Shown here piece after piece: positions 1,168-10,566 of a stretch of DNA of 14,578 nt. Below the pieces are notes generated by a model, which was not told the origin of the DNA, searched no databases, and saw only the letters and a list, made by a program, of their open reading frames with translations. Both the position numbers and the translations under genes were made by a program. Position 1 is the stretch's first letter; the number at the start of each line of letters is the position of its first letter. The DNA comes from a virus, in the UHGV virus genome UHGV-0349585; one strand, written 5' to 3'.

Positions 1168-2544
1168 TCATACGTCCGCCCCTTGTGCATATCGTCTGCC
1201 ACGTGCAGCGGGTGCATTTGATGCTGTGCAAATCTGTCTGGCTTCATCCTGGTCACATGCAACAAAGTGTCCGTTGCAGAACCGCTGGTAAACCGTACCA
1301 AGCGAGCCAAAACGGTTTTTCGTCACGATGATTTCAGCAAATGGCGCGGCGCTACTGTTCTCGTCATATACAGCTTCCCGATAGAGCATGATGATTGAGT
1401 CTGCGTCCTGTTCAATGCTTCCTGAATCACGCAAATCTGCGTTTGTCGGGCGTTTGTTTGGTCGCTTCTCAACATCGCGTGAAAGCTGACTCAGGGAGAT
1501 AACAGGCGTTTTCAGGTCTTTCGCCATCGCCTTCAGGCTTCCGGAGATGTGAGCAATTGCGAGGTCGTTGCGATCTGCTTTCGGCTTCTCAATCAGGCCA
1601 AGATAATCCGCCATGATGAGTGACAGGTTGGGATTTTCCTGTTTGTGCCGCTCTGCGATTGAGCGAATTTCTTCTACCGATAACCGCGAGGCATCGACTA
1701 CCCATACATCCAAATCTGCAAGCTGACTCATGCCGTTAGCAACACGCGCCCAGCCTTCGTCATCCATCGATGCAGGATTTCGCAGTACGCTAACCGACAT
1801 CCTCCCGGCGTTGGCAATGCTTCGCTCTGCAATCTGCAATGCGCTCATTTCCATTGAGAAAATCAATACCCCGCGCCGGACGTCAGAACCAGGGATAACG
1901 CGGCTTGCAACGCCTTCGGCAATCTTCAGCGCCAGCTCGGTTTTCCCCATACCAGGACGAGCAGCGATTATCACAAGGTCTTCCGCGTTCATCCCTCCGG
2001 TGATAGCGTCAAGTTCTTCGATTCCGGTCTTCAGGGTATCTGACTCTTCTCCGTTCCTCAGACGCCTGTCAAGCGTGTCAGTGTAGTCAGTGATGATTTC
2101 CCCTAACCGTACAGGTTTAACCTCGTCACGGGGCTTTCTGATGGCTGAAAGACGCTTTACAAGTTCATCCATCGCCTGACTCGATGCGTCGATGGTTCCG
2201 CTCTGAATTGGTTCACGCATTTCATCCATGATTTCCAGCACCAGACGGCGGTGATAGTTATCCGCGACCATTCCGGCATATCCCTTCAGGTTTGCGGCAC
2301 TCGGGCAGTTTTTGCTGGTCATCAGGATTGACGTGAAATGCTCCTCTCCGCACGCCTCGGCAACCATCAGCGCGTCGATTAGGTTTCTGTTTCTCGCCTG
2401 CTTGCGGATAACCTCGAAGGCTTTCCGGTAGAGCGGAATTGAAAACGCTTCCGGCTCCAGCGTTGCCAGAACGTCACTGGCAGTTGGTGTTAATCCACCA
2501 ATCAGCAAGCCACCGATAACGCTCGCTTCGATATCCTGTTTCAT
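1168..2544 (-). CDS. Replicative DNA helicase, DnaB family (phage-encoded, P22 gene 12-like rather than lambda P)
   Basis: 458 aa; Walker A ARPGMGKT; DnaB-like N-terminal and RecA-like C-terminal layout; start overlaps O-like stop (ATGA at 2541-2544). Confidence 0.85.
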
Positions 2545-3371
2545 GCAATCCCCCTGTCTGCAAACTTCCCTTCCCGTACTCCCGTTAACGAATCTTCCCT
2601 CAGCAGGTAATCAAAATCTGCCGTCCAGCCCGTGTCGTTGTCTCCGAAGTAAAACGGCTTGGCCTGATGCACAAACGCCCTGACATACGCTCTGAAACCG
2701 TCCACGTTTGGCGTTTTCAGTTGCGGGATGATTTTCTTCAGGCGGCGTTTGCGTTTCTCGTTGACCGCAACAGCATGTGGAAGTCTGTCACCGACTTCGG
2801 TGTTGTAGGCGTTCAGGAAGGATTCGTAGTCGATTCGTTCTGCCTTGCGACGTTCAGGTTTAACCTGCCCATCGCCGCCCCCGTTAGGGGGTAAGGGGGT
2901 ATTTGTATTTATTGTCTTTTGTATATTGTCTTTTGTGTTTGACTGATTCGGTAAATTGCTTTTTACCGATTTGGTGAAGGTTTGTTTTACCGAATTGGTA
3001 AATGTTTTACCGAATCCGTTAACTTTCGTTTTCCACTCGGAAATGTTTGTATTCATACCAACTTGACGCCCCACCTGAATGAGAACTCCCATTCTGATAA
3101 GCTCGTTTTTGGCGGTAGAGCATTTGGTTGGTGCCATGCCAGTGAGTTCAGCGAACTGTTCGTTTCCGATCCAATCTATTTTTTTGTTGTAACCGTATGT
3201 CTTGCGCCACACAGCCATAACAATCAGTAACTGATGTAGAGTAAGTCCAGAAAGCATGGCGGCTTCTAACAGTGTGTTTGCAGTCCGAGTGTAGCCATCT
3301 TCGAGTTCTGCCACGCGATGCTCCACGACCTCCAGTTGAGGCCTGTAATCAGCTAACTTAACGACGCCCAT
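2541..3371 (-). CDS. Replication initiation protein, lambda O N-terminal-domain family, with iteron-encoded repeat segment
   Basis: 276 aa; [22 protein letters not shown] motif typical of phage O-like initiators; internal repeats [16 protein letters not shown] coincide with DNA iterons; AGGAG RBS before ATG at 3371. Confidence 0.8.
2898..3025. repeat. Origin of replication: iterons plus adjacent AT-rich tract inside the O-like gene
   Basis: TTTTACCGAAT core as three direct copies (about 2961, 2986, 3005) plus one inverted copy (2946-2955); AT-rich tract 2898-2940 with TGTCTTTTGT repeated. Confidence 0.65.
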
Positions 3372-3553: not shown

Positions 3554-3832
3554 TCAGGCCTCGAAGAATTCGCCGTTCTTCGGGGCTTTTTCTTTTGTCA
3601 GCATTCTGGCTACTTTCTTAGCCAGTTCCGCCAACTCCTCGTCTTCAACACCCCATTCAAGAACAGCCAGAAGCATTCCCATTTTTGGGATGAAGCTGTC
3701 TTTCCATCGCGAAATTTGCGATTCATTAATCCCTAACGCGTCGGCAACCTTTCGCTGACCACGTACAGCAATTCGATTCAGGATGTTGCTTGTAATTGCA
3801 TTCGCTTTCTTGCGAGTACTTGTAAGTTGCAT
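3554..3832 (-). CDS. cII: CII-like transcriptional activator (92 aa), diverged from lambda CII
   Basis: Conserved core ALGINESQISRWK...FIPKMGMLLAVLEWGV resembles lambda CII; ATG at 3832 preceded by the lambda-like leader CTAAGGAAATACTTACAT; ORF-track frame extends further upstream but this start has the RBS. Confidence 0.75.
   Translation of the reverse strand: MQLTSTRKKANAITSNILNRIAVRGQRKVADALGINESQISRWKDSFIPKMGMLLAVLEWGVEDEELAELAKKVARMLTKEKAPKNGEFFEA
3557..3596 (+). terminator. Strong intrinsic terminator on the strand antisense to cII, overlapping the cII 3' end (oop-RNA-like arrangement)
   Basis: About 11-bp stem GGCCTCGAAGAA/TTCTTCGGGGC with 7-nt loop, followed directly by TTTTTCTTTT on the plus strand. 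Confidence 0.55.
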
Positions 3833-3859
3833 ATGTAAGTATTTCCTTAGATAACAATT

Positions 3860-3900
3860 GATTGAATGTATGCAAATAAATGCATACACCATAGGTGTGG
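3860..3900 (-). terminator. tR1 region hairpin between nutR and cII
   Basis: Perfect 8-bp inverted repeat TGTATGCA/TGCATACA (3867-3888) plus adjacent CACC..GGTG palindrome; matches lambda tR1 region as I recall it. Confidence 0.5.
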
Positions 3901-3911
3901 TTTAATTTGAT

Positions 3912-3943
3912 GCCCTTTTTCAGGGCTGGAATGTGTAAGAGCG
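3912..3943 (-). promoter_or_regulatory. nutR (boxA and boxB)
   Basis: On minus strand: boxA CGCTCTTA (3943-3936) then boxB hairpin GCCCTGAAAAAGGGC (3926-3912), just after cro. Confidence 0.8.
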
Positions 3944-3950
3944 GGGTTAT

Positions 3951-4160
<210 letters not shown>

Positions 4161-4177
4161 TTAGTACATGCAACTAT

Positions 4178-4247
4178 TATCACCGCTAGAGGTAAAATAG
4201 TCAACACGCACGGTGTTAGATATTTATCCCTCGCGGTGATAGATTTA
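4178..4247. promoter_or_regulatory. OR1-OR2-OR3 operators with divergent pR (toward cro) and pRM (toward cI)
   Basis: 17-bp operators at 4178-4194 (OR1), 4202-4218 (OR2), 4225-4241 (OR3); pR -35 and -10 as AGTCAA and ATTATC on the plus strand; pRM -35 TAGATA (4217-4222) and -10 GATTTA (4242-4247); cI ATG at 4252 is leaderless. Confidence 0.85.
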
Positions 4248-4248
4248 A

Positions 4249-4965
<717 letters not shown>

Positions 4966-5961: not shown

Positions 5962-5990
5962 AACCCGGCCTCCATGCCGGGTTTTCTTTT
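5962..5990 (+). terminator. Intrinsic terminator ending the cI operon (timm-like)
   Basis: CCCGGC/GCCGGG stem (5964-5981) with 6-nt loop followed by TTTTCTTTT. Confidence 0.6.
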
Positions 5991-6140
5991 CCTCTCGCCC
6001 CAAAAAAAACGCATAACCAATTGTATTTATTTCAAAATTAATAGATACAACTCACTAAACATCGCAATTCAGATCTCTCGATCACCTTCCCAATCCACAC
6101 AACCCTGCAAAAAATAAATCTATATAAAAAACATACAGAT

Positions 6141-6203
6141 AACCATCTGCGGTGATAAATTATCTCTGGCGGTGTTGACATAAATACCACTGGCGGTGAT
6201 ACT
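6141..6203 (+). promoter_or_regulatory. OL3-OL2-OL1 operators and pL promoter
   Basis: 17-bp operators at 6141-6157, 6161-6177, 6185-6201; -35 TTGACA (6175-6180); -10 GATACT (6198-6203). Confidence 0.9.
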
Positions 6204-6242
6204 AAGCACATCAGCAGGACGCACTGACCACCATGAAGGTGA

Positions 6243-6273
6243 CGCTCTTAAAAATTAAGCCCTGAAGAAGGGC
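6243..6273 (+). promoter_or_regulatory. nutL (boxA and boxB)
   Basis: boxA CGCTCTTA (6243-6250); boxB hairpin GCCCTGAAGAAGGGC (6259-6273). Confidence 0.85.
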
Positions 6274-6430
6274 AGCATTCAAAGCAGAAGGCTTTGGTGT
6301 GTGTGATACGAAACGAAGCATTGGCCGGAAGTGCGAATCCGGATTAGCTGCCAATGTGCCATTGCGGGGTGTTTTCGTTCAGGACTACGACTCCCACACA
6401 CAACCAAAGCTAACTGACAGGAGAATCCAG

Positions 6431-6757
6431 ATGGATGCACAAACACGCCGCCGCGAACGTCGCGCAGAGAAACAGGCTCAATGGAAAGCAGCAAATCCCC
6501 TGTTGGTTGGGGTAAGCGCAAAACCAGTTAACCGCCCTATTCTCTCGCTGAATCGCAAACCGAAATCACGAGTAGAAAGCGCACTGAATCCGATAGACCT
6601 TACAGTGCTGGCTGAATACCACGAACAGATTGAAAGCAACCTGCAACGTATTGAGCGCAAGAATCAGCGCACATGGTACAGCAAGCCACGCAGTGAAATG
6701 GGTGTGACTTGTGTTGGTCGCCAGAAAATGAAATTAGGCAGCAAACCACTTATTTGA
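6431..6757 (+). CDS. N: N antitermination protein (108 aa), lambda-like with a divergent C-terminus
   Basis: MDAQTRRRERRAEKQAQWKAANPLLVGVSAKPVNRPILSLNRKPK... with Arg-rich N-terminal motif; AGGAG RBS before ATG at 6431; ORF-track frame 6299-6757 is an upstream extension into the leader. Confidence 0.9.
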   Translation: MDAQTRRRERRAEKQAQWKAANPLLVGVSAKPVNRPILSLNRKPKSRVESALNPIDLTVLAEYHEQIESNLQRIERKNQRTWYSKPRSEMGVTCVGRQKMKLGSKPLI

Positions 6758-7236: not shown

Positions 7237-7250
7237 TACGAATAAGCACT

Positions 7251-7278
7251 GTGTATTCATTCCAACGAGTGAATACAC
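7251..7278. repeat. Perfect 9-bp inverted repeat with 10-nt loop
   Basis: GTGTATTCA (7251-7259) and TGAATACAC (7270-7278); no T-run follows. Confidence 0.5.
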
Positions 7279-7340
7279 GGAGCAATGTCGCTCGTAACTA
7301 AACAGGAGCCGACTTGTTCTGATTATTGGAAATCTTCTTT

Positions 7341-7367
7341 GCCCTCCGGTGTGAGGGCAATTTTTTT
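7341..7367 (+). terminator. Intrinsic terminator between the AT-rich ORF and the coiled-coil gene
   Basis: GCCCTC/GAGGGC stem with 6-nt loop followed by AATTTTTTT. Confidence 0.6.
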
Positions 7368-7379
7368 GACGGAGGATAT

Positions 7380-8348
7380 ATGAGTGAAGTAACAGATTTA
7401 GTTGTTATTGAAAAAGCAAATGCAATGACTGTATTTCAGTCTGCCGACCAGATTGAAGAAATCCTTCAAAAGGTTGAACGTGAAGTTATGTCCTTTGTGC
7501 CTGATATCACAACGGCAAAGGGCAGAAAGGAGATCGCTTCTCTGGCGTATAAAGTTGCGCAGACGAAAACATATCTCGATGGTCTTGGAAAAGACCTTGT
7601 TGCTGAACTGAAGGAAATTCCAAAGCTAATTGATGCCAACCGCAAGACAGTGCGCGATCGCCTTGATGAGCTGAAAGCCAAGGCACGCCAGCCTCTTACT
7701 GATTATGAAGAGGAACAGGCGCGAATTAAAGCTGAAGAAGAAGCTAAGGCAGCAGCTGAAGCTCTCGCAAAGCAAATTGAGTCTGACCATGAAATAGCGA
7801 TTTTGATGGATCGCGAATTTGACCGCCAAAGAGAAGAGGCAAGACTCAAAGCGGAGCAGGAAAAGCGAGAGCATGAAGAACGCTTAAAAAGAGAAGCTGA
7901 AGAGAAAGCCAGAGCTGAAGCCGAAGCAAAGGCAAAAGCCGAAATTGAAGCAGCAGCAAGGCGAGAAGCAGAAGCTAAGGCCGCAGCGGAACGTGCAGAG
8001 CGTGAACGCATTGAAGCCGAGCAACGAGCACAGCGCGAAGCAAAAGAGGCAGCAGAACGAGCTGAAAGAGAAAAGCAGGCAGCAATTGAAGCAGAACGCA
8101 GAAAAGCACAGGAGGAGGCTGAACGAATCCGGCGCGAGGCTGAAGCAAAAGAGCAAGCCAGAATAGCAGAAGAAAAAAGAATCAAGGACGAAGAAGAGCG
8201 TAGAGCAAAGGATAAAGCTCACCGAAAAGAAGTAAATAACAAAATACTTGCTGACCTTATCAAGGTTGGCGCATCAGAAGATGTTGCTAAAAATATCATA
8301 ACAGCCATCGTAAAAGGCGAAGTATTCGCAACAAAAATAACCTACTAA
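7380..8348 (+). CDS. Charged coiled-coil protein (about 322 aa) with Glu/Ala/Lys/Arg-rich low-complexity central region
   Basis: GGAGGA RBS then ATG at 7380 (MSEVTDL...); central 200 residues are EAKA/ERAE-type repeats; globular-looking ends; ORF-track frame starts 18 codons upstream without an RBS. Confidence 0.75.
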   Translation: MSEVTDLVVIEKANAMTVFQSADQIEEILQKVEREVMSFVPDITTAKGRKEIASLAYKVAQTKTYLDGLGKDLVAELKEIPKLIDANRKTVRDRLDELKAKARQPLTDYEEEQARIKAEEEAKAAAEALAKQIESDHEIAILMDREFDRQREEARLKAEQEKREHEERLKREAEEKARAEAEAKAKAEIEAAARREAEAKAAAERAERERIEAEQRAQREAKEAAERAEREKQAAIEAERRKAQEEAERIRREAEAKEQARIAEEKRIKDEEERRAKDKAHRKEVNNKILADLIKVGASEDVAKNIITAIVKGEVFATKITY

Positions 8349-8372
8349 TAAAACCAACATAAGGAACCACCC

Positions 8373-8504
8373 ATGATTTACGCAATCGCGGGAGGCGCTC
8401 GCATGGGTGCCTTCCAACTAAATGAATCTTTACTTGAACGAATCACCCGTAAATTACGTGACGGATGGAAAAGAGTTGAGGTCTTATTATGCGCAATGAA
8501 ATAG
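8373..8504 (+). CDS. cIII: CIII-like protein (43 aa), putative FtsH inhibitor
   Basis: My own translation MIYAIAGGARMGAFQLNESLLERITRKLRDGWKRVEVLLCAMK; shares the ESLLERITRKLRDGWKR core with lambda CIII; AAGGA RBS. Confidence 0.7.
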   Translation: MIYAIAGGARMGAFQLNESLLERITRKLRDGWKRVEVLLCAMK

Positions 8505-8641
8505 CCATCAATCACCAGATGCTTCGAGCAGCACAAAACAAAGCAGTAATAGCCAGATTTATTGGTGATTCAAAAATGTGGCTTGAAGCAAATAAAGCGA
8601 TGAAATCAGCTATCAACCTTCCGTGGTATCGCAGGAAATGA
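8489..8641 (+). CDS. kil: Kil-like protein (50 aa), putative cell-division inhibitor
   Basis: My own translation MRNEIAINHQMLRAAQNKAVIARFIGDSKMWLEANKAMKSAINLPWYRRK; resembles the lambda Kil segment ...IATFIGDEKMFREA... as I recall it; GAGG RBS; overlaps cIII 3' end. Confidence 0.55.
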   Translation: MRNEIAINHQMLRAAQNKAVIARFIGDSKMWLEANKAMKSAINLPWYRRK

Positions 8642-8715
8642 GTTTTACAGATAACTGGTCAGACAAAGAATTCATTCGTCAGATGAAAGAATTAATCGGT
8701 AACGAAGGAGATATG

Positions 8716-8886
8716 CATGTCACTTGCAACCACAGTGAAGGAGAGCAAGTTACAGAGACGCATGTACACTCAGCAGGCGTTAATGTATCGCCAGAAGGGA
8801 GATCGTGAAGGTGTTCGCGTATTTTTGAATGCGGCAAAGACTGAAGTATTAAATCAGCGTTATTTCCTTGGGCCATGTCCATTCTG
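8716..8886 (+). CDS. Small hypothetical protein (56 aa)
   Basis: AAGGAGA RBS 5 nt upstream of ATG at 8716; my own translation MSLATTVKESKLQRRMYTQQALMYRQKGDREGVRVFLNAAKTEVLNQRYFLGPCPF; competes with the ORF-track frame 8623-8808. Confidence 0.3.
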
Positions 8887-8895
8887 AGGTGAATT

Positions 8896-9603
8896 ATGGA
8901 TTTGAACAAATTCGATGAGCCATTCAGCCCCGAAGATATCGAATGGCGAATACAGCAAAGCGGTAAAACACGCGATGGCAAGGTGTGGGCTATGGTGCTG
9001 GCTTATGTCACGAACCGGGCAATCATGAAACGCCTGGATGATGTTTGCGGCAAAGCAGGATGGCGCAATGAATACCGCGATATTCCCAACAACGGCGGAG
9101 TTGAATGCGGCATATCAATCAAGATTGATTCCGAATGGGTAACCAAATGGGATGCTGCTGAAAACACGCAGGTAGAAGCCGTCAAAGGTGGTCGTTCCGG
9201 TGCAATGAAGCGTGCTGCCGTTCAGTGGGGAATCGGTCGGTATCTGTATAACCTTGAGGAAGGTTTCGCACAAACATCTCTCGACAAAAAGCAGGGATGG
9301 CACAGGGCAAAACTCAAGGATGGAACAGGATTTTACTGGCTCCCTCCATCGCTGCCGGGCTGGGCAATCCCAGCATCAGATAACAAACCATCACCAGAAA
9401 ATACCAACCAGAAATCTCCATCGGTTGACTGCGAACAAATCCTGAAAGACTTCAGCGATTATGCAGCGACAGAAACTGACAAGAAAAAACTCATCGAGCG
9501 TTATCAGCATGACTGGCAATTAATGGCTGGAAACGAGGAGGCGCAGGCTAAATGCGTTCAGGTAATGAACATCAGAGTTAACGAGCTAAAACAGGCGGCA
9601 TAA
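8896..9603 (+). CDS. Single-strand annealing protein, Rad52/Sak-like family (235 aa)
   Basis: RAAVQWGIGRYLY motif and overall size and layout resemble phage Rad52-family annealing proteins; GAGGTG RBS; directly precedes ssb. Confidence 0.7.
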   Translation: MDLNKFDEPFSPEDIEWRIQQSGKTRDGKVWAMVLAYVTNRAIMKRLDDVCGKAGWRNEYRDIPNNGGVECGISIKIDSEWVTKWDAAENTQVEAVKGGRSGAMKRAAVQWGIGRYLYNLEEGFAQTSLDKKQGWHRAKLKDGTGFYWLPPSLPGWAIPASDNKPSPENTNQKSPSVDCEQILKDFSDYAATETDKKKLIERYQHDWQLMAGNEEAQAKCVQVMNIRVNELKQAA

Positions 9604-10086: not shown

Positions 10087-10566
10087 ATGAAAATCTGCTC
10101 AAGATGCCATCAACAGAAGGAAGAAAGGGACTTTCAAATCAGAAGAGCATCCAGAGATGGATTAACTGCCGCTTGCCGGGCTTGCCTGGCTGAATATGAC
10201 AAAGAGCGCGCGGGATTGCCACATCGAGTATCAGCAAGGAGAGAATATCAATCATCGGAACGCGGCAGAGAACGGTGTAACGCAGCCAAAAAGCGGTTCA
10301 TTCAGAGCAACCCATGGAAAAGAAAAGCCCACATCATCGTGGGTAATTTTTTGCGCGACGGTAAGCTAATCCGACCACCACAATGTGAGTGCTGCGGATC
10401 AGAATGTAAACCACAGGCGCACCACTGCGACTACAGCAAACCAACCGATGTGATGTGGCTCTGCAAGTCATGTCATGTCGAGTGGCACAAACATAACAAA
10501 CCTATCTACCCAGACGAGGAGCCAGTAACTCTCCCCTTCCCTCGTCACGCTATTCACGCAATTTAA
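10087..10566 (+). CDS. HNH-endonuclease-like zinc-binding protein (159 aa)
   Basis: Two Cys clusters (CSRCH...CRAC and CECCGSEC...CKSCH) with an HH...WH arrangement typical of HNH nucleases; GGAG RBS. Confidence 0.6.
   Translation: MKICSRCHQQKEERDFQIRRASRDGLTAACRACLAEYDKERAGLPHRVSARREYQSSERGRERCNAAKKRFIQSNPWKRKAHIIVGNFLRDGKLIRPPQCECCGSECKPQAHHCDYSKPTDVMWLCKSCHVEWHKHNKPIYPDEEPVTLPFPRHAIHAI

Follow-up and report, generated by a model that had tools for sequence, protein, structure and literature searches.

The window analysed here, a stretch of 14,578 nt from the virus genome UHGV-0349585, contains at positions 8373-8641 two short genes, cIII and kil, which overlap by 16 nt (Table 1), exactly where the first-pass annotation of this DNA had placed them. 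The + strand corresponds to the pL direction and carries, in this order, cI, N, other genes, a coiled-coil gene, cIII, kil, two ORFs, a Rad52-family gene and SSB. Lambda-like cI and N are located upstream of cIII on the same strand, and the order N ... cIII - kil - recombination genes is the same as in lambda, P22 and HK022. The position of cIII directly upstream of kil and overlapping with it within the early-left operon is likewise found in lambda, HK022, P22 and Sf6. We consider it very probable that cIII and kil are functional genes of the early-left (pL) operon, belonging to a lambdoid phage or prophage and representing the allele pair first annotated in Shigella phage Sf6; the activities of the two products are extrapolated from lambda. 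Homology, mosaic structure, conservation and population frequency of the pair are established here.

Table 1. Features of the cIII-kil region and of the window, with positions counted from the first nucleotide of the window
Feature	Position	Strand	Description
Lambda-like islands	1-905; 3830-4961; 5962-6732		blastn vs lambda: nin region; cro/cI (98%); N (92%)
Further lambda-like islands	7246-7366; 8424-8471		98%; 100%; a few more further downstream
Left boundary of the putative module	7246-7366	+	121-nt patch, 98.3% identical to lambda (blastn), where it lies between ral and Ea10
Coiled-coil gene	7380-8348	+	322 aa, centre rich in Ala/Glu/Lys/Arg; homolog of Sf6 gene 33
Shine-Dalgarno sequence of cIII	8361-8365	+	AAGGA, 7 nt 5' of the ATG, read from the sequence
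cIII	8373-8504	+	ATG to stop, 43 aa, MIYAIAGGARMGAFQLNESLLERITRKLRDGWKRVEVLLCAMK; short-tailed Sf6-type allele, predicted FtsH-inhibitory lysogeny factor
mRNA hairpin	8390-8415	+	11 bp, cIII codons 6-15, GGGAGGCGCUC-GCAU-GGGUGCCUUCC
cIII core	8424-8471	+	48 nt encoding ESLLERITRKLRDGWK; 48/48 nt identical to lambda
cIII tail	8472-8504	+	R-VEVLLCAMK-stop; overlaps the kil ribosome-binding site and kil start
Shine-Dalgarno sequence of kil	8478-8481	+	GAGG, 7 nt 5' of the kil ATG
kil	8489-8641	+	ATG to stop, 50 aa, MRNEIAINHQMLRAAQNKAVIARFIGDSKMWLEANKAMKSAINLPWYRRK; HK022/Sf6-type allele, predicted host cell-division inhibitor
gp42.1-like and gp42-like (HK97) ORFs	8638-8808; 8717-8887	+	PHROG 2123 and 1723; right end of the putative module
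Rad52/Rad22-family single-strand annealing protein	8896-9603	+	PF04098, E=5e-26; Sf6 gp28 type, outside the module

The two peptides had been recognized as CIII and Kil homologs from the sequence alone, and database searches bear this out. CIII matches the Lambda_CIII family (PF02061) over residues 2-36 with 56 bits (E=4e-15; gathering cut-off 25.7 bits), and Kil matches the full profile (1-31) of Lambda_Kil (PF06301) with 72.6 bits (E=1.7e-20; cut-off 27.6 bits). The corresponding PHROG families are 550 (E=1.6e-20) for CIII and 2055 (E=1.2e-35) for Kil. The pairwise comparison with the lambda proteins, which the first-pass annotation had named as a way to check its proposal, gave 24/35 identities for CIII (BLASTP, E=1e-13) and 17/30 for Kil (E=3e-9). 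Taken with the Pfam and PHROG scores, these values lie far above chance, so the observation is real. Both peptides are very short, which limits statistical power in general, but with Pfam scores 2-3 times the gathering thresholds, the above pairwise E-values and the retained synteny with lambda, P22 and HK022, a fortuitous resemblance of short ORFs to lambda CIII and Kil is practically inconceivable and was rejected on the Pfam and BLASTP scores. A search of NCBIfam with six proteins, the CIII and Kil peptides included, returned no matches, the promoter/terminator scan of 8373-8641 found nothing exceeding the shuffled expectation, and no RNA family emerged from the Rfam scan of the entire window at gathering thresholds. 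Two ORFs on the minus strand of the interval (8378-8536 and 8512-8616) were regarded as arising incidentally from the coding strand. The sequence ATAAGGA ahead of cIII is invariant across the window, Sf6, HK022, lambda and P22.

In lambda, CIII inhibits the membrane protease FtsH competitively while also being one of its substrates, protects CII and promotes lysogeny (PMC1838920). It functions as an oligomer (PMC1838920), and its residues 14-37, which form an amphipathic helix of 24 residues, are both essential and sufficient according to the summary of Kornitzer 1991 given in PMC1838920. Alanine substitution of S17, R24, L26, R27 or R32 results in a cIII- phenotype (PMC1838920). The window CIII is indeed shortened, as had been noted (43 aa vs 54 aa in lambda), and it retains at residues 18-34 (nt 8424-8474) the core ESLLERITRKLRDGWKR that the earlier reading had emphasized, identical to that of the lambda protein, whose gene has the same place in the pL operon. 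Lambda 14-37 can be aligned gap-free with residues 16-39, 18 of 24 positions being identical, and all five functionally essential residues are conserved (S19, R26, L28, R29 and R34). Compared to lambda, the N-terminal third is P22-like and two residues longer, the last five residues of the essential region differ (VEVLL vs LIDIL), and four residues (CAMK) stand in place of the 17 residues 38-54, which lie outside the 14-37 region. For the helical hydrophobic moment we obtained 0.55, compared to 0.25±0.13 for shuffled sequences, only 1.6% of which reach this value; it is somewhat lower than that of lambda CIII (0.67). AlphaFold2 predicts one helix spanning residues 3-42, with pLDDT of 91-93 over residues 21-40. 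By homology, this 43-residue amphipathic-helix peptide would competitively inhibit the host FtsH, which would stabilize CII and push the infected cell to lysogeny.

Lambda Kil (47 aa) is a helix-turn-helix peptide with helices 4-18 and 21-38 separated by a G19-D20 turn (PMC11762379), and it disrupts FtsZ rings in a ZipA-dependent manner (PMC3961180; PMC11762379). The window Kil is 47% identical to it overall and shares 17 of the 35 residues of the helix-turn-helix core. The AlphaFold2 model (mean pLDDT 86) comprises a helix (2-25), the same Gly-Asp turn (G26-D27) and a second helix (28-42), and the FIGD motif is kept. The termini diverge: the window protein has seven additional N-terminal residues and ends with YRRK, whereas lambda Kil ends with RSSKSIH. 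A C-terminal RSK/RSSK motif is said to be present in nearly all homologs of lambda Kil, and YRRK, although basic and similarly positioned, differs from it in sequence. By homology, the 50-residue peptide would block FtsZ-ring assembly through a ZipA-dependent mechanism and would cause filamentation during lytic growth or induction.

The pair as such is not new: its annotation goes back to Sf6, PGAP assigns names to both genes, and 502 of 5,426 complete E. coli genomes (about 9%) contain it over at least 80% of its length. In Sf6 (NC_005344), gp32 (CIII, 43 aa) and gp31 (Kil, 50 aa) are 100% identical to the window proteins and their genes have the same 16-nt overlap. At the DNA level cIII is 100% identical and the rest of kil 96%, with a few synonymous differences in kil. 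The neighbors are also those of the window (the coiled-coil gene 33, genes 30/29, the Rad52-like gp28, SSB and gp26), whereas the Sf6 record shows 434-like operators and the window has lambda-type immunity. Among the matches listed, the E. coli copies are 99.3-99.6% identical and carry the RefSeq names "protease FtsH-inhibitory lysogeny factor CIII" and "host cell division inhibitory peptide Kil". In 33 phage records, including N7, Sf101, mEp043 and Stx1a-converting phages, the match extends over 80% or more of the 269-nt interval, with about 97-99% identity among the matches listed. P22-like phages have early-left operons that are highly mosaic, and cIII and kil homologs are described as belonging to their normal content (PMC2629481). 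An identical 43-aa CIII was found in 80 of the 80 best IMG/VR contigs, a set retrieved with a CIII alignment in a search that returned only contigs with identical CIII.

In 18 related haplotypes, a small and non-independent sample, we counted 3 variable sites in the 132 nt of cIII and 19 in the 153 nt of kil. The cIII variants comprise 3 synonymous and no non-synonymous changes, a count that says little on selection because identity of the CIII protein was the criterion by which these contigs had been chosen. In kil there are 13 synonymous and 6 non-synonymous changes, with 4 of the latter 6 falling in the last seven residues, a distribution consistent with purifying selection. The gap in diversity between the two genes could be due either to cIII being constrained at the nucleotide level (mRNA structure) or to differing recombination histories. 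In the record of phage N7 (MH717096, locus ~7628-7759) kil is annotated and the 43-aa cIII is omitted, while the DNA is 99.3% identical over both genes; the missing cIII is an annotation gap and not a biological difference. This omission, together with a product 11 residues shorter than lambda CIII, might suggest that the short cIII is a truncated, decaying remnant without function and that kil alone is functional. We regard this as highly improbable, as the protein is identical in Sf6 and in all of the 80 contigs, the E. coli copies listed are annotated by PGAP as intact CIII, and the start codon, the Shine-Dalgarno sequence, the essential region and the five essential residues are all intact. 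A pseudogene interpretation was rejected on the same conservation in Sf6, in the 80 contigs and at the essential residues. The 43-aa ORF, easily overlooked by gene callers, is a genuine conserved cIII, and the value of its recognition lies mostly in correct annotation.

Nucleotide comparisons with other lambdoid phages reveal that cIII itself is a mosaic. The first 17 codons (8373-8423) are closest to c3 of P22 (78% identity, vs 43% for lambda). In the core that follows, the identity to P22 and HK022 is 75% and 42%, respectively, while the flanks of the core are only 42-50% identical to lambda. The segment 8472-8488 is closest to none of the four sequences compared (35-50%; lambda 50%, HK022 35%), and from there on the sequence is that of HK022, with 16/16 nt identical in 8489-8504 and 97% identity in 8505-8641; in the alignment, the identity to HK022 starts at 8485. 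HK022 (AF069308) encodes a Kil 100% identical to that of the window, has the same overlap of the cIII stop with the kil start, and its CIII ends with LCAMK like the window CIII. The core of HK022 CIII is diverged, with 40% overall identity to the window protein, and Kobiler et al. (PMC1838920) placed it in a separate "HK022 class", whereas the window CIII, unlike it, has a lambda-class core. Salmonella phage P22 shows the complementary resemblance: the N-terminal third of its C3 and the mRNA hairpin are similar to those of the window (78% at the nucleotide level; MIIAIAGSARMG vs MIYAIAGGARMG), and c3 is followed by kil and then by recombination genes as in the window. Unlike the window protein, P22 C3 keeps a long lambda-like tail, and the P22 Kil (62 aa) is only 32% identical to the window Kil.

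The gene can therefore be described as a P22-like 5' part, with the start region and the mRNA hairpin, that would have been joined to the 48-nt lambda-identical core, and the latter in turn to a 3' end of the HK022 type, in which the final codons coincide with the ribosome-binding site and start codon of kil. The proposal that cIII and kil homologs had been retained while the surrounding lambda genes were replaced holds insofar as both genes are true homologs, but they are alternative alleles in which only 48 nt (8424-8471) are lambda-like. From the same comparisons, the short CIII tail is the HK022-type ending, most likely a by-product of gene assembly, set by the HK022-type kil start, with which the "shortened" C-terminus overlaps. 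HK75 (NC_016160) provides a natural counterpart: it encodes MQYAIAGWPVAGCPSESLLERITRKLRDGWKRVEVLLCAMK, in which a lambda-type 5' half is joined to the same core and to the window-type VEVLLCAMK tail, followed by the same kil (98.2% nucleotide identity over 8424-8641), so that the difference from the window lies in the 5' third of cIII, lambda-type in HK75 and P22-like here. This chimera implies at least one crossover inside the 48-nt core and independent assortment of the cIII halves.

Whether the core is more generally a preferred intragenic crossover point, at which the 5' and 3' halves of cIII are reassorted among lambdoid phages, is a tentative proposal, and we consider it somewhat unlikely. 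According to it, the 5' half would bring the translation-control hairpin and the N-terminus, the 3' half would bring the tail, kil and downstream genes, and the four combinations would be those seen in lambda, HK75, the window/Sf6 allele and P22. If true, cIII would be a clear and quantifiable linker for modular exchange inside a 130-nt gene, with its low synonymous diversity perhaps additionally due to nucleotide-level constraint. The clean evidence for the core as an intragenic crossover is only a slightly new angle, which fits the established mosaicism of lambdoid phages, and it would be of modest interest even if general. The natural cIII chimeras share the core but differ in their 5' half (lambda-type or P22-like) and in the length of the tail. 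They form a ready-made panel in which the roles of the 5' mRNA hairpin and of the CIII termini in translational control, FtsH inhibition and turnover of CIII could be compared.

The complete identity of the core to lambda could alternatively be due to a nucleotide-level function, i.e. an RNA or DNA element, instead of recent exchange combined with selection at the protein level. Hundreds of phage records have the core at 98-100% identity with differing flanks, and the haplotypes show fewer variants in cIII than in kil, as described above. On the other hand, P22 keeps 14 of the 16 core residues despite 12 nucleotide differences, the HK022 core is only 42% identical, and both HK022 and P22 are still classed as CIII homologs (by record annotations or in PMC1838920); moreover, no Rfam match was found in the window and the haplotype sample is small and non-independent. 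We therefore regard a nucleotide-level function of the core as improbable.

Upstream of the core, the 11-bp hairpin in the 5' part of cIII may have a role at the RNA level. The region 8355-8430 (76 nt) folds with -22.9 kcal/mol (z=-2.5), P22 c3 forms the same hairpin with one compensatory double change of G-C to A-U, and HK022 and lambda cIII have hairpins at the matching position. The covariation rests on four sequences (window, P22, HK022 and lambda), as the contig search gave only identical CIII. The 5' region of lambda cIII has been described as a translational RNA thermometer operating via alternative mRNA structures (Altuvia 1989, as cited in PMC6524683), and conserved translational control by the cIII hairpin is plausible. 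In thermodynamic models for 30, 37 and 45 °C, the accessibility of the Shine-Dalgarno sequence underwent no switch in the window, P22 or HK022, and none that was clear in lambda; nearest-neighbor folding is unable to probe the thermometer idea here. The hairpin may also explain the conserved N-terminal "AIAG" residues of CIII, the function of which was called unknown by Kobiler et al. (PMC1838920).

The first-pass annotation suggested that the altered C-terminus of CIII could change its interaction with FtsH or its own turnover. The missing residues 38-54 lie outside the lambda 14-37 region, i.e. outside the segment summarized in PMC1838920 as necessary and sufficient, and the HK022-type ending is a standard one, hence we do not expect FtsH inhibition to be lost or altered. 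A weaker version of this suggestion is that the short C-terminus makes the protein quantitatively different from lambda CIII, e.g. in the rate of its degradation by FtsH or in oligomerization, so that the set-point of the lysis-lysogeny decision would be shifted. CIII is both an FtsH substrate and an oligomer (PMC1838920), hence its ends and helix packing could matter, and the replacement of 17 lambda residues by CAMK, the different end of the helix (VEVLL vs LIDIL) and the lower amphipathic moment all point in this direction. Against it stand the location of the removed part and the occurrence of the same tail in HK022, HK75, Sf6 and the ~9% of complete E. coli genomes, which marks it as a standard variant and not a lesion; moreover, as the overlap with the kil start determines the tail sequence, selection for a property of CIII need not be involved. 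Our literature search found no experiment on the 43-aa CIII or on the HK022/Sf6-type Kil. Altogether, we consider a quantitative shift rather unlikely, and favor the interpretation of the tail as a by-product of gene assembly.

The pair does not usually travel alone; in the 80 contigs with identical CIII it is mostly co-inherited with its immediate neighbors, including the coiled-coil gene. The similarity of these contigs to the window usually extends from about 7240 to 8888. The left edge falls at 7237-7280 in most of them, and, of the 63 contigs long enough to reach the right edge, 50 have it at 8888, i.e. 8 nt before the ATG of the recombinase gene. These shared boundaries indicate a moving unit larger than cIII-kil, and on the evidence of the alignments the module would comprise the coiled-coil gene, cIII, kil and the gp42.1-like and gp42-like ORFs, about 1.65 kb in total. 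Its left boundary coincides with the 121-nt lambda-like patch, inside which a terminator scan revealed a strong terminator-like hairpin (7339-7360) followed by T7, and the equivalent region of Sf6 is annotated as the boundary sequence bsq4 and the terminator tL2A.

The coiled-coil gene had been called novel, a description that does not stand, as it corresponds to Sf6 gene 33 (97% nucleotide identity) and is found in many sequenced phages, with 97-98% nucleotide identity in Sf6, N7, IME10, mEp234, HK544 and others. It matches PHROG 1376 and 21365, shows no match to Pfam, and in most related contigs forms part of the shared block. Lambdoid and P22-like phages commonly carry it, under labels that vary by record ("TolA", "antitoxin", "hypothetical"). 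The TTG at 7326, listed as the start of this ORF, runs through the 121-nt patch. The ATG at 7380 is the more likely start. Long minus-strand ORFs over this gene (e.g. 7703-8185) resemble artefacts of its repetitive GAA/GCA composition. At the right end of the module, the gp42.1-like and gp42-like ORFs, both annotated in Sf6 and HK022, encode 56 aa each and overlap by 92 nt in different frames, and both are annotated in several phage records. In the 18 haplotypes the variants within this overlap are mostly synonymous in the 8717 frame, while the 8638 frame acquires missense, stop-gain (E53*, R55*) or stop-loss changes from them, thus the 3' part of the 8638-8808 ORF may not be under selection.

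Beyond the module lies the gene that had been described as a non-lambda recombinase, correctly so, as its product is a Rad52/Rad22-family protein and not lambda Bet. Downstream of CIII, 49 of the 80 contigs possess an Erf of the HK022/HK97 type and 25 the Rad52-like gene of the window, while lambda Bet or Gam was found in none of the 80; upstream, lambda Ea10 is present in 4 of 80. The Rad52-like gene thus appears interchangeable with Erf beside the cIII-kil module. It is followed by SSB and by an ORF of 159 aa on the + strand (10087-10566), rich in Cys and corresponding to Sf6 gp26 ("endonuclease"), for which no significant Pfam match was found. Finding a nuclease in this setting of recombination genes is unusual (PMC2629481).

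On the scale of the whole window, the module-level mosaicism proposed from the sequence alone is evident: compared to lambda, the window is a patchwork of near-identical islands and unrelated DNA. The lambda genes Ea10, Gam, Bet and Exo, which flank cIII-kil in lambda, are absent from the window. In the immunity region (3830-4961), cro and the 237-aa cI are about 98% identical to lambda. The adjoining replication genes (1168-3371) are not those of lambda O/P at the DNA level, and the 458-aa ORF 1168-2544 falls within features that the HK544 and Sf6 records label as a DnaB-like replicative helicase. The lambda-like cro/cI with non-lambda neighbors indicates that lambda immunity is combined here with replication and recombination modules of non-lambda type.
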